Notes under the pieces: model-generated | The model's database searches: none | Seen by the model: the letters and a program-made list of their open reading frames with translations, nothing else | Told to the model about the DNA's origin: nothing | Shown: positions 56,207-61,921 of the stretch, piece after piece | Layout of the letters: every line of letters begins with the position of its first letter | Numbering within the stretch: the stretch's first letter is position 1 | Made by a program: the position numbers and the translations under genes | Assembly: GCF_045037415.1 (NCBI RefSeq) | Contig: NZ_CP173438.1 | Direction: 5' to 3' (one strand) | Length of the DNA: 64,000 bases | Source: Escherichia coli | GTDB taxonomy: Bacteria > Pseudomonadota > Gammaproteobacteria > Enterobacterales > Enterobacteriaceae

Positions 56207-56722
56207 ATGCGCTATAGCAAATTGACCATGCTTATCCCTTGCGCACTGCTACTCAGTGCCTGTACCACCGTCACGCCAGCTTATAAAGATAACGGCCCCC
56301 GCACCGGTTCCTGTGTCCAGGGGGGGCCTGATAGTGTGGCTCAACAGTTCTATGACTACCGCATTCAACATCGCAGCAATGACATTACCGCTCTGCGCCC
56401 CTATTTGAGTGACAAACTGGCAACCCTACTTAGCGATGCCAGCCGCGATAATAGTCATCGTGAATTGTTAAGCAGCGATCCGTTCTCCAGTCGAACCACC
56501 TTGCCAGACAGCGCCCACGTAGCCAGTGCATCGACTATCCCTAATCGTGATGCCCGTAACATTCCATTGCGCGTGGATCTCAAGCAGGGTGACCAGGGCT
56601 GGCAGGATGAAGTGTTAATGATTCAGGAAGGCCAGTGTTGGGTCATCGACGATGTGCGCTACTTAGGCGGTAGCGTTCATGCCACGGCGGGTACGCTCCG
56701 TCAATCCATCGAGAATCGCTAA
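56207..56722 (+). CDS. ybjP: lipoprotein YbjP
   Basis: MRYSKLTMLIPCALLLSACTT... lipobox LLSAC. Confidence 0.9.
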   Translation: MRYSKLTMLIPCALLLSACTTVTPAYKDNGPRTGSCVQGGPDSVAQQFYDYRIQHRSNDITALRPYLSDKLATLLSDASRDNSHRELLSSDPFSSRTTLPDSAHVASASTIPNRDARNIPLRVDLKQGDQGWQDEVLMIQEGQCWVIDDVRYLGGSVHATAGTLRQSIENR

Positions 56723-56939
56723 CGTCTTGATCAACCAATAAACCCCGTAAATTGTCCGGCATTTCGTGAGGAATGCCGACATTTATGCTCGCCGACCACC
56801 GCCCCCGTTATTTTGTGCTATGTTTATTGAATAATGCGCTTTGCTTTTAACTTTTAAAGCAGAAATATTGCATAATTATTCTGTCAAAGGTACTATCTTC
56901 GACCTCAATAGCTATCAGACTGCCAGTATACGAGTGTCA

Positions 56940-57668
56940 ATGAGTATTCAATTAAACGGCATTAATTGCTTCTACGGCGCGCATCAGGCGCTGTTCGATA
57001 TCACGCTGGATTGCCCGCAGGGCGAAACGCTGGTGTTACTTGGCCCCAGCGGCGCGGGTAAAAGCTCGCTGCTGCGTGTACTCAATCTGCTTGAGATGCC
57101 GCGCTCCGGTACGCTCAACATTGCAGGCAACCATTTCGATTTCACCAAAACCCCCTCTGACAAAGCGATTCGCGATTTGCGTCGTAACGTTGGCATGGTG
57201 TTTCAGCAATACAACCTGTGGCCGCATCTGACCGTGCAGCAAAACCTGATTGAAGCGCCCTGCCGTGTACTGGGGCTGAGTAAAGATCAGGCGCTGGCCC
57301 GTGCAGAAAAACTGCTGGAACGTCTGCGTCTTAAACCTTATAGCGATCGTTACCCGCTGCATCTTTCTGGTGGTCAGCAGCAGCGTGTTGCTATTGCCCG
57401 TGCGTTGATGATGGAACCGCAGGTACTGCTGTTCGATGAACCGACCGCCGCACTGGACCCCGAAATTACGGCACAAATCGTCAGCATCATTCGTGAGCTG
57501 GCAGAAACGAATATTACCCAGGTGATCGTCACCCACGAAGTTGAAGTGGCGCGTAAAACCGCCAGCCGAGTGGTGTATATGGAAAACGGTCATATCGTAG
57601 AACAAGGCGACGCGAGCTGCTTTACCGAGCCGCAAACCGAAGCATTTAAAAACTATCTCTCTCACTAA
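56940..57668 (+). CDS. artP: arginine ABC transporter ATP-binding protein
   Basis: [45 protein letters not shown]... Confidence 0.96.
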
Positions 57669-57685
57669 GATTCGGGATAACAACA

Positions 57686-58417
57686 ATGAAAAAAGTTCTG
57701 ATTGCCGCGTTAATTGCAGGTTTTAGTCTTTCCGCCACAGCAGCCGAAACCATTCGTTTTGCCACCGAAGCCTCCTATCCTCCGTTTGAATCGATTGATG
57801 CAAACAACCAGATCGTTGGTTTTGATGTCGACCTGGCGCAGGCATTGTGTAAAGAGATTGATGCAACCTGCACTTTCTCTAACCAGGCGTTTGACAGCCT
57901 GATCCCAAGCCTGAAATTCCGTCGCGTAGAAGCAGTGATGGCGGGCATGGATATCACTCCGGAGCGTGAAAAGCAGGTGCTGTTTACCACCCCGTACTAT
58001 GACAACTCTGCCCTGTTTGTGGGTCAGCAAGGCAAATACACCAGTGTTGATCAGCTGAAAGGCAAAAAAGTTGGCGTTCAGAACGGGACGACACACCAGA
58101 AGTTCATTATGGATAAGCATCCGGAAATCACTACCGTGCCATATGACAGTTACCAGAACGCAAAACTGGATCTGCAAAACGGTCGTATCGACAGCGTATT
58201 TGGTGACACCGCAGTGGTAACTGAATGGCTGAAAGATAACCCGAAACTGGCGGCAGTGGGCGATAAAGTGACCGATAAAGATTACTTCGGTACTGGCCTC
58301 GGCATCGCAGTACGCCAGGGCAACACTGAACTGCAGCAGAAATTCAACACTGCGCTGGAAAAAGTGAAGAAAGATGGCACTTACGAAACCATCTACAACA
58401 AATGGTTCCAGAAGTAA
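57686..58417 (+). CDS. artI: arginine-binding periplasmic protein ArtI
   Basis: 243 aa, signal peptide then ..ETIRFATEASYPPFESID.. ; paralog of artJ. Confidence 0.95.
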   Translation: MKKVLIAALIAGFSLSATAAETIRFATEASYPPFESIDANNQIVGFDVDLAQALCKEIDATCTFSNQAFDSLIPSLKFRRVEAVMAGMDITPEREKQVLFTTPYYDNSALFVGQQGKYTSVDQLKGKKVGVQNGTTHQKFIMDKHPEITTVPYDSYQNAKLDLQNGRIDSVFGDTAVVTEWLKDNPKLAAVGDKVTDKDYFGTGLGIAVRQGNTELQQKFNTALEKVKKDGTYETIYNKWFQK

Positions 58418-58423
58418 TTCCTG

Positions 58424-59140
58424 ATGAATGAATTTTTTCCTTTAGCAAGCGCCGCCGGGATGACCGTCGGCCTTGCCGTTTGTGCATTGATTGTCGGGCT
58501 GGCGCTGGCGATGTTCTTTGCGGTATGGGAGTCTGCGAAATGGCGTCCTGTCGCGTGGGCAGGTTCAGCGCTGGTAACCATTCTGCGTGGCCTGCCAGAA
58601 ATTCTGGTGGTGCTGTTTATCTATTTTGGCTCCTCGCAGCTGCTGCTGACGCTTTCGGATGGCTTCACTATCAATCTTGGGTTCGTGCAGATCCCGGTGC
58701 AGATGGACATTGAGAACTTCGACGTTAGCCCGTTCCTTTGTGGTGTCATCGCTCTGTCACTGCTGTATGCCGCCTATGCCTCGCAAACGCTGCGTGGTGC
58801 ATTAAAAGCGGTGCCGGTGGGGCAGTGGGAATCCGGTCAGGCGCTGGGGCTGTCGAAATCGGCTATCTTTTTCCGTCTGGTGATGCCGCAGATGTGGCGT
58901 CATGCGCTGCCGGGTCTCGGTAACCAGTGGCTGGTGCTGCTGAAAGATACCGCGCTGGTCAGTTTGATTAGTGTGAATGATTTAATGCTACAAACCAAAA
59001 GCATCGCTACCCGTACCCAGGAACCGTTTACCTGGTACATTGTGGCGGCGGCGATTTACCTGGTGATCACCCTGCTCAGTCAGTACATTCTCAAACGCAT
59101 TGACCTGCGCGCGACACGTTTTGAGCGGAGGCCCAGCTAA
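58424..59140 (+). CDS. artQ: arginine ABC transporter permease ArtQ
   Basis: 238 aa polytopic permease. Confidence 0.95.
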
Positions 59141-59808
59141 TGTTTGAGTATTTACCCGAACTGATGAAAGGGCTGCACACCAGCCTGACGCTAACCGTTG
59201 CCTCGCTGATTGTGGCACTGATTCTGGCATTGATTTTTACCATCATCCTGACGCTGAAAACGCCGGTGCTGGTGTGGCTGGTACGGGGCTATATCACGCT
59301 GTTTACCGGTACGCCGCTGCTGGTGCAGATCTTCCTGATTTATTACGGGCCGGGCCAGTTCCCGACGTTGCAGGAGTATCCGGCACTGTGGCATTTGTTG
59401 TCAGAACCGTGGTTATGTGCGCTGATTGCGTTGTCGCTGAACAGTGCGGCGTACACCACGCAGCTGTTTTACGGTGCGATTCGCGCGATCCCGGAAGGTC
59501 AATGGCAGTCCTGTAGCGCCCTGGGAATGAGCAAAAAAGATACGCTGGCGATCCTGCTGCCGTACGCGTTTAAACGCTCGCTCTCTTCTTATTCCAACGA
59601 AGTGGTGCTGGTGTTCAAAAGTACCTCTCTGGCTTACACCATTACGCTCATGGAAGTGATGGGATACAGCCAGTTGTTGTACGGACGCACCTACGATGTA
59701 ATGGTATTTGGCGCGGCGGGGATTATTTACCTGGTCGTCAACGGCCTGCTGACGCTGATGATGCGTCTGATCGAGCGTAAAGCACTGGCATTCGAACGGC
59801 GGAATTAA
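59140..59808 (+). CDS. artM: arginine ABC transporter permease ArtM
   Basis: 222 aa polytopic permease, ATGA overlap with artQ. Confidence 0.95.
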   Translation: MFEYLPELMKGLHTSLTLTVASLIVALILALIFTIILTLKTPVLVWLVRGYITLFTGTPLLVQIFLIYYGPGQFPTLQEYPALWHLLSEPWLCALIALSLNSAAYTTQLFYGAIRAIPEGQWQSCSALGMSKKDTLAILLPYAFKRSLSSYSNEVVLVFKSTSLAYTITLMEVMGYSQLLYGRTYDVMVFGAAGIIYLVVNGLLTLMMRLIERKALAFERRN

Positions 59809-59825
59809 TGTAGCTGCATGCTGAT

Positions 59826-59860
59826 GCCGGATGCGGCGTGGACGCCTTATCCGGCCTACA
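59826..59860. repeat. REP element downstream of artM
   Basis: GCCGGATGCGGCGTGGACGCCTTATCCGGCCTACA, canonical E. coli REP-like sequence. Confidence 0.8.
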
Positions 59861-59883
59861 TAGTGCATAAATTCTTATTATGA

Positions 59884-59918
59884 AGACGGACAACCCACTA
59901 AGCTGTCCGTCTTTTTTT
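59884..59918 (+). terminator. rho-independent terminator of artPIQM operon
   Basis: AGACGGACAACCCACTAAGCTGTCCGTC + TTTTTTT. Confidence 0.7.
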
Positions 59919-59935
59919 ATTTCATATAAATTATT

Positions 59936-59953
59936 TACTCATATTTATTGCAT
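59936..59953 (+). promoter_or_regulatory. candidate ARG box (ArgR operator) upstream of artJ
   Basis: TATTGCATATAAATTCAC approximates the ARG-box palindrome (TGAAT-N-ATTCA half-sites). Confidence 0.35.
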
Positions 59954-60033
59954 ATAAATTCACTTAATGGCATTGTTATCCCATGCCGCAGACACGGCCA
60001 AAAATCATAAGATTGACAGACGGGAGTTCCATC

Positions 60034-60765
60034 ATGAAAAAGTTAGTTCTTGCCGCTTTACTTGCTTCTTTTACTTTCGGTGCTTCTGCCGCAGAGAAAA
60101 TCAATTTTGGCGTTTCAGCCACCTATCCACCCTTTGAATCTATAGGTGCTAATAATGAGATTGTCGGCTTTGATATCGACCTGGCAAAAGCCTTGTGCAA
60201 ACAAATGCAGGCAGAATGTACTTTTACTAATCACGCTTTCGACAGCCTGATCCCGTCACTGAAATTCAGAAAATATGACGCCGTAATCTCCGGAATGGAT
60301 ATCACGCCGGAGCGTAGCAAACAGGTATCGTTTACCACGCCCTACTACGAAAACTCAGCCGTCGTGATTGCCAAAAAAGATACCTACAAAACGTTTGCCG
60401 ATCTGAAAGGCAAACGTATTGGGATGGAAAACGGCACCACGCACCAGAAATATATTCAGGATCAGCACCCGGAAGTGAAAACTGTCTCCTATGACAGTTA
60501 TCAGAATGCCTTTATCGATCTGAAAAATGGCCGTATTGATGGCGTATTTGGTGACACCGCAGTGGTAAACGAATGGCTGAAAACCAATCCGCAACTGGGC
60601 GTTGCTACTGAAAAAGTGACCGATCCGCAATACTTCGGCACCGGCCTGGGTATCGCTGTACGTCCGGATAACAAAGCTCTGCTGGAAAAACTGAATAACG
60701 CGCTGGCAGCAATTAAAGCTGACGGTACATATCAGAAAATCAATGACCAGTGGTTCCCACAGTAA
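60034..60765 (+). CDS. artJ: arginine-binding periplasmic protein ArtJ
   Basis: MKKLVLAALLASFTFGASAAEKINFGVSATYPPFESIGANNEIVGFDIDLAKALCKQ... Confidence 0.96.
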   Translation: MKKLVLAALLASFTFGASAAEKINFGVSATYPPFESIGANNEIVGFDIDLAKALCKQMQAECTFTNHAFDSLIPSLKFRKYDAVISGMDITPERSKQVSFTTPYYENSAVVIAKKDTYKTFADLKGKRIGMENGTTHQKYIQDQHPEVKTVSYDSYQNAFIDLKNGRIDGVFGDTAVVNEWLKTNPQLGVATEKVTDPQYFGTGLGIAVRPDNKALLEKLNNALAAIKADGTYQKINDQWFPQ

Positions 60766-60772
60766 GATTCAG

Positions 60773-60798
60773 AAAGCCGCACCTGCGGCTTTTTTATT
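60773..60798. terminator. bidirectional terminator between artJ and rlmC
   Basis: AAAGCCGCACCTGCGGCTTTTTTATT. Confidence 0.6.
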
Positions 60799-61921
60799 GC
60801 TTCACCAGTAGCGTCAGCACTTCATAGTGCGCGGTGTGCGGGAACATATCAAAAAGCTGTACCCGTTCGATGCGATAACCAGGCAGTTCGCGGATATCTT
60901 TCGCCATAGTTTGGGCGTTACAGCTGGAGTAGATAATAAAACGCGGTGCCATCGTTGAGAGATAATCACACAGCGGTTTACCGATGCCGCGGCGCGGCGG
61001 GTTAACCAGCACCAGCTCCGGCACTTCCCCCTGAGCGGTGGCAAACTGCGTAGAGTCCAGCGCCTGAAATTGCAAACGCGTTAAGCCCAGTTCAGCGGCT
61101 GACTGCTTCGCACAGGCAATGGCCTCTGGTGCAATTTCGATCCCGGTTAACTGCATGTCAGGCGTCGCGCAGTGTAAACCAAAGCCACCCACACCGCAGA
61201 ACAGATCCCACATATGTTTAACCGGCAGCTGTCGTACCCAGTCGCGCGCGGTGGCGTACAGCTGGCTGGCGACCGCCGGATTAGTCTGGAAGAAACTTTG
61301 CGGACGGATCCACAGCGGTACGTCATTAAAACGCTCTGCCAGTGCCTGTTGTTCGGTCAGGTAGATCTCCGTCTCCCCTTCCATAATCGCCATATGTACC
61401 GGCTGAATATTGACGGTAATAACTTTCAGCTGCGGTAATTGTTCCTGTAACCACGGCAGCGCCTTACGCAATTGCGCCAGTTTGGTATCAGAACGCAGTA
61501 CAAAACGCAGCATCATGCCACCATCGCTCTGGCTTTCAGTCAGCAGAATGTATTTCAGTTCACCACGTTTACGCGCCACGTTGTAGGGCGTTAACCCCGC
61601 ACGGGCGATAAACGGTTTTAGCGCCGCAAAAACGGGCGCAAATGAGGCTGGATAAAGCGGGCAGTCACAAAGGTCTTCCGGTGTACCATCTCGATGCAGC
61701 ATACCGAGCAGTGGTTTTTCAACGCTACCACTCACCACCATTTTGGCTTTATTACGAAACCCTTGTTCCGGGCCTGACACCGGCGCACACCATTCCTCAA
61801 CCGGAAAATCGGCGAGCAGATTTTTAAGATCGGCAGTTTTAGCGGAGAGTTGCTCTGGAATCGGCTGCGTTATCCACTGACAGGAACGACAGCGACCCGC
61901 GTCGTAAAGTGCGCACTGCAT
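60794..61921 (-). CDS. rlmC: 23S rRNA (uracil747-C5)-methyltransferase
   Basis: 375 aa, [20 protein letters not shown]... N-terminal Cys cluster + SAM-MTase. Confidence 0.95.

Follow-up and report, generated by a model that had tools for sequence, protein, structure and literature searches.

Positions 59926-59964 of the window, by which we mean the whole 64,000-nucleotide stretch of Escherichia coli DNA analysed here, are almost certainly the canonical two-box ArgR operator of the artJ promoter, and the sequence singled out in the preliminary description of this DNA is the proximal box of that operator. A second ArgR operator, built to the same design and controlling artPIQM, is supported at 56846-56884. 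The artJ operator has been described before and is an ordinary feature. What is established here is the quality of the motif, its two-box architecture, its statistical significance, its conservation across species and its agreement with K-12; the physical binding of ArgR, the dependence on arginine, repression and steric exclusion are drawn from the literature on K-12.

The DNA around the two sites is readily placed. Several complete E. coli chromosomes agree at 100% identity with the window from 56600 to 60900, and of 5426 complete E. coli genomes 5424 match this segment. The locus runs in the order ybjP-artPIQM-artJ, with artP, artI, artQ, artM and artJ all annotated under the match, and the art genes stand in the same order in the K-12 reference. 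The artJ start codon, an ATG at 60034, is in frame with the open reading frame listed at 59983..60765. The gene for the regulator itself, argR, is present in E. coli K-12 and lies outside the window. The genes, boxes, presumed promoter elements and terminator are collected in Table 1.

Table 1. Genes and regulatory elements of the art locus, in window coordinates.
Feature	Position	Strand	Sequence, score or basis
artP operator, promoter-distal degenerate ARG box	56846-56863		TTTAACTTTTAAAGCAGA; 7.1 bits
artP operator, promoter-proximal ARG box of artPIQM	56867-56884		ATTGCATAATTATTCTGT; 18.2 bits; 2 mismatches to WNTGAATWWWWATTCANW
PartP core promoter (presumed)	56868-56896	+	-35 TTGCAT 56868-73; 17-bp spacer; -10 TACTAT 56891-96
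artPIQM operon	56940-59808	+	ORFs; RefSeq annotation under the 100% match; K-12 annotation
artP	56940-57668	+	
artI	57686-58417	+	
artQ	58424-59140	+	
artM	59140-59808	+	
artPIQM intrinsic terminator	59882-59918	+	11-bp stem, 11-nt loop, U-tract
artJ operator, promoter-distal degenerate ARG box	59926-59943		ATAAATTATTTACTCATA; 10.2 bits; 4 mismatches
artJ operator, spacer	59944-59946		TTT
artJ operator, promoter-proximal ARG box	59947-59964		ATTGCATATAAATTCACT; 21.1 bits; 1 mismatch to WNTGAATWWWWATTCANW
PartJ -35 (presumed)	59948-59953	+	TTGCAT; inside the proximal ARG box
PartJ -10 (presumed)	59971-59976	+	CATTGT; 17-bp spacer from TTGCAT
artJ, arginine-specific periplasmic binding protein (regulated gene)	60034-60765	+	100% DNA match to RefSeq genomes annotating ArtJ; K-12 annotation

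The ArgR matrix was trained on the K-12 control regions of eight operators (carAB, argF, argA, argG, argR, argD, argECBH and argI), a set that holds no art sequence. An expectation-maximisation motif search across these eight regions, with no consensus supplied, returned ATTGAATTATAATTCAAT, which is the textbook ARG box. The matrix itself was compiled from 16 boxes, the best tandem pair of each training region. In seven of the eight operators the paired boxes are separated by a 3-bp spacer and in argR by a 2-bp spacer, and we take the extracted tandem boxes to agree with the classical arginine operators. The 16 training boxes score between 9 and 23 bits, a range that includes the proximal boxes of both artJ and artP.

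When some 64,000 positions of the window were scored as single boxes, 59947-59964 ranked first with 21.1 bits and 56867-56884 second with 18.2 bits, and the third match reached 12.6 bits. A scan for tandem boxes at 21-bp spacing ranked artJ first (31.2 bits) and artP second (25.3 bits); the next tandem match, at 13.3 bits, is the artJ proximal box paired again with its own downstream flank and not a third locus. A matrix scan had been proposed in the preliminary description as a way of checking the artJ site, and its two top scores in the window fall exactly on the artJ and artP sites. When the window was shuffled 300 times with dinucleotides preserved, a single box as good as that of artJ turned up once and one as good as that of artP 12 times, and neither tandem score was reached in any shuffle, the shuffle maximum being 20.2 bits. 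Other ArgR sites were not found in the 64-kb window, where no further single match exceeds 12.6 bits and no other tandem locus exceeds 11.3 bits.

Two lesser candidates came out of the same scans and were set aside. A partner for the artJ proximal box on its downstream side would start at 59967/59968, at a spacing of 20-21 bp, and scores only 1.9 and -7.8 bits there. At 56935-56956, across the artP start codon, lie two overlapping moderate matches, TGTCAATGAGTATTCAAT (12.2 bits) and AATGAGTATTCAATTAAA (11.7 bits), which are seen again in Salmonella and Citrobacter; as an ArgR site they are treated as chance or, probably, as conservation of coding sequence.

The matrix also settles the register of the artJ site. 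The preliminary description had placed an ARG box at 59936-59953 and gave for it the 18-mer TATTGCATATAAATTCAC, which is real and occurs a single time in the window, at 59946-59963, so that the coordinates were 10 bp too low. A box is indeed present in this 18-mer, in a frame one nucleotide out of the canonical register: the earlier frame scores -12.1 bits with 8 mismatches, against 21.1 bits and one mismatch to WNTGAATWWWWATTCANW for the true box at 59947-59964. The extent of the operator has to be revised in the same way, since the proximal box had been recognised and the distal box at 59926-59943 left out. It is this distal box that pairs best with the proximal one; the two start exactly 21 bp apart, which leaves a 3-bp gap between them.

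In its proximal half the artJ operator is base-for-base identical to that of K-12. Positions 1, 13 and 18 of the distal box depart from the K-12 sequence, and its score is 10.2 bits here versus 4.6 bits in K-12. The proximal box reads TGCAT, with C rather than A at position 5, and the artP proximal box does likewise. Taken singly the two distal boxes are weak, with 10.2 bits at artJ and 7.1 bits at artP, and about 0.2-0.6% of positions in sequence of 30% GC score as high; it is thus the exact spacing, together with conservation and the literature, that identifies them as ARG boxes. No paper came up when full texts were searched for the box sequence.

A candidate upstream of artP, near 56866-56883, had also been pointed out, and it proved correct: the sequence TTGCATAATTATTC is found at 56868-56881, within the full box at 56867-56884. 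The description of this site as the weaker of the two is right for the matrix score, which is lower, but does not carry over to binding, as the in vitro ArgR affinity of the artJ and artP control regions is very similar (PMC6640053). The distal box, here too left out of the preliminary description, again starts exactly 21 bp upstream of the proximal one, with the spacer AAT, and the entire artP operator is base-for-base identical to K-12.

The conservation of the artJ site was followed with one genome per species, which gave 80 Enterobacteriaceae artJ loci (83-97% protein identity), 79 of them with enough upstream sequence. The proximal box is present in all 79 loci, usually 87 bp before the ATG, and in 78 of them the best tandem match is formed by the distal and proximal boxes with 3 bp between them. 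The distal box has a conserved right half in these loci, TTAATCAT / TTATACAT, and in many genera the distal box is better than the one in E. coli, with scores of up to 17 bits. The upstream regions were aligned with MAFFT and the mean information per column was computed. It is 1.76 bits in the proximal box, the highest of any intergenic block, and 1.28 bits in the distal box; the downstream promoter and 5′ UTR blocks carry about 1.2 bits per column and the sequence upstream of the distal box 0.70 bits.

Of 5426 complete E. coli genomes, 5404 contain a match to the 81-bp operator query (59915-59995). No variation was seen in the proximal box among the divergent E. coli alleles sampled, and E. 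albertii has a single change there, at an N position; the polymorphisms of the two species lie in the left half of the distal box and in the sequence before it. One strain, E. coli DETEC-P61 (NZ_CP116152.1), carries a 10-bp deletion aligned to 59918-59928, which takes away the left edge of the distal artJ box and the bases immediately before it, and leaves the proximal box intact.

For the artP operator the comparison covered 10 genera, with contigs found through the exact ArtM proteins of 10 orthologous loci, all of which include the ybjP-artP spacer. In all 10 genera the two best tandem matches of the 7.7-kb art locus are the artJ operator, ranked first, and the artP operator, ranked second. 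All of them have the artP proximal box, which varies only at position 10, which is T in E. coli and C elsewhere, and between T and C at position 18; the distal box is kept as TTTAAsTTTTAAcGCAnA.

One could also read the match as a by-product of an AT-rich promoter, made up of a -35 hexamer TTGCAT and UP-like A/T tracts, with no repressor involved at all. Intergenic regions are relatively AT-rich (GC 41%), and in sequence of 20-30% GC some 1-3 boxes of at least 18 bits would be expected per 64 kb. The presumed -35 hexamer does lie in the box, and promoter function could account for part of the conservation, but it is the whole 18-bp palindrome that is conserved, including a right half, ATTCA, that has no promoter role. 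Chance composition likewise fails to provide a partner box at exactly 21 bp in 78 of 79 species, or tandem scores that are never reached in shuffles, and the design is repeated at the independent artP promoter. In K-12, moreover, experiments have demonstrated both binding and repression by ArgR, according to the account of Caldara 2007 given in PMC6640053. We consider it very improbable that the match arose from promoter composition, and retain the ArgR operator as the explanation.

Both proximal boxes start with ATTGCAT and each therefore has the -35-like hexamer TTGCAT inside it. At artJ, the presumed -10 sequence CATTGT sits in the conserved block ATGGCATTGT, whose column identity is 0.7-0.9 across the 80 loci, and the presumed PartP hexamers are conserved in 8-10 of the 10 genera. 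A consensus promoter scan called neither PartJ nor PartP, finding 3 sites where 3.9 were expected. Both promoters are poor matches to the consensus, and so the -35 and -10 assignments rest on conservation and on the coordinates in PMC6640053. From the primer coordinates of that paper (-195..+26) and its stretch of 76% G+C at -96 to -116, the artP transcription start would lie at about 56905-56906, which would put the boxes at about -59 to -21. At 56807-56820, some 90 bp upstream of this start, is the sequence GTTATTTTGTGCTA, which is nearly invariant in the 10 genera. The in silico Lrp site of PMC6640053 (-85 to -98) falls on it, and this supports the calibration.

How ArgR acts at these promoters is known from K-12. 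According to Caldara 2007, as cited in PMC6640053, ArgR binds two 18-bp ARG boxes 3 bp apart at artJ, artP and hisJ; the artJ and artP boxes overlap the -35 element, ArgR represses both promoters, and arginine-bound ArgR prevents initiation at PartJ by sterically excluding RNA polymerase. The presence of TTGCAT in the proximal boxes fits this published mechanism. With abundant arginine, a hexameric, arginine-bound ArgR would occupy the pair of 18-bp imperfect palindromes, which at a distance of 21 bp would present themselves on the same face of the helix. Because the proximal box contains the presumed -35 hexamer, bound ArgR would sterically exclude RNA polymerase, and the exclusion of the polymerase would shut down synthesis of ArtJ, the high-affinity arginine-binding protein, and of the ArtPIQM transporter. 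In a comparative reconstruction of the ArgR regulon, artPIQM belongs to the core and artJ to the taxon-specific members (PMC5343134), and the main text of the ChIP-exo paper PMC4381063 mentions neither artJ nor artP.

Another protein that recognises AT-rich DNA, for example Lrp, might be the main user of the site in place of ArgR. There is some basis for this at artP, where Lrp binds from about -165 to -10, overlapping the ARG boxes, and represses about three-fold, and where binding of AllR to the region was found by genomic SELEX (PMC6640053). At artP, though, Lrp adds to ArgR and competes with it without replacing it, and it has no effect on artJ, where expression from PartJ is nearly identical with and without Lrp (PMC6640053). 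The in vivo repressibility of PartP is roughly nine-fold lower, and the difference is largely attributed to interference by Lrp (PMC6640053). Against the ArgR matrix, the motif itself scores as well as bona fide biosynthetic operators do. A site meant chiefly for Lrp or a similar regulator is thus hardly credible, and ArgR remains the regulator to which we assign it. The earlier claim of an ArgR operator repressing artJ is borne out by the matrix ranks, the second box 3 bp upstream, the conservation, the literature (PMC6640053) and the K-12 identity of the proximal box, and its interpretation as an ArgR operator is supported at both sites, with no observation speaking against it.

The operator was also said to lie between the artPIQM terminator and artJ, and RNA folding agrees, with a stem and U-tract at 59882-59918 and the artJ ATG further on at 60034. 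The fold has a dG of -15.2 kcal/mol (z = -5.11), and none of 200 shuffles was as stable. A consensus terminator scan missed this terminator because its 11-nt loop exceeds the limit of 8 nt set in the scan. Its stem is kept across genera with differing sequences. A single REP element follows the artM stop codon, at 59812-59860, and Rfam reports a sub-threshold match to the REP-derived naRNA4 at 59816-59856 (37 bits versus a gathering score of 59.5) and otherwise matches at chance level. On the other side of the operator, in the presumed 5′ UTR of artJ, there is a small conserved stem-loop, GCCGCAGACACGGC, at 59985-59998, with a GCCG/CGGC stem and a 6-nt loop, and further downstream a conserved block, ATCATAAGATTGACAGACGGGAG, that ends in the Shine-Dalgarno sequence. 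Most of the 80 loci have kept both hairpin and block.

Between the REP element and the artM terminator, at 59862-59879, lies an ARG-like half-site, AGTGCATAAATTCTTATT, whose left half reads nTGCATAA. As a full box it scores 11.3 bits and ranks tenth in the window. In 43 of 80 Enterobacteriaceae loci the start of the best upstream matrix match is 84-86 bp ahead of the proximal box (about 4 x 21), a distance also found in several other loci after correction of the register; the spacing is held although the intervening terminator sequences differ between genera. The right half of the site is not conserved, the full-box scores are weak, and Trabulsiella has TGAAT instead of TGCAT. A literature search on an sRNA from the artM 3′ UTR returned nothing specific, and Rfam held nothing relevant to the half-site. 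We regard it as unlikely that nTGCATAA at 59862-59879 is a remote third ARG half-site; alternatively it may be an RNA-level element of the artM 3′ UTR. Were it a remote half-site, it could, on the same helical face, engage two free DNA-binding domains of the ArgR hexamer, and a small DNA loop across the artPIQM terminator would join it to the ArgR bound at artJ. Such an arrangement could contribute to the unusually strong repression of artJ.

The artJ and artPIQM operators of K-12, as described by Caldara 2007 and cited in PMC6640053 (Torres Montaguth et al. 2019), share with the window the locus, the genes, the two 18-bp boxes, the 3-bp spacer and the overlap with a -35 element, presumed in the window. 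In K-12 three positions of the distal artJ box read differently, with a lower score, and artM is followed by an additional REP copy of about 66 bp; the element is of the same kind in spite of both. The operators of argF, argI, argECBH, argA, argD, argG, argR and carAB P2 are made of the same 18-bp imperfect palindrome in a 21-bp tandem (20 bp in argR), and, like those of the art genes, they pair a strong box with a weaker one and overlap the promoter, at the art genes the presumed one. In the biosynthetic operators both boxes are usually fairly good, whereas the art distal boxes are markedly degenerate. The TGCAT of the art proximal boxes is also found in boxes of argR, argG and argD. The hisJQMP operator lies outside the window: it too serves an amino-acid transport operon and has two ARG boxes 3 bp apart that are bound by ArgR, but these are further upstream of the -35 element than the art boxes, and repression there is not simple steric exclusion (PMC6640053).

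For annotation, the practical outcome is a pair of correct coordinates: the artJ operator occupies 59926-59964 and the artP operator 56846-56884. That a matrix trained on biosynthetic operators alone singles out exactly both known transport operators in 64 kb serves as a positive control. The conserved remote TGCATAA half-site is the sole new lead, a minor and unproven one. For the organism, the result confirms textbook regulation: when arginine is plentiful, ArgR represses its high-affinity uptake through an operator of the biosynthetic type.
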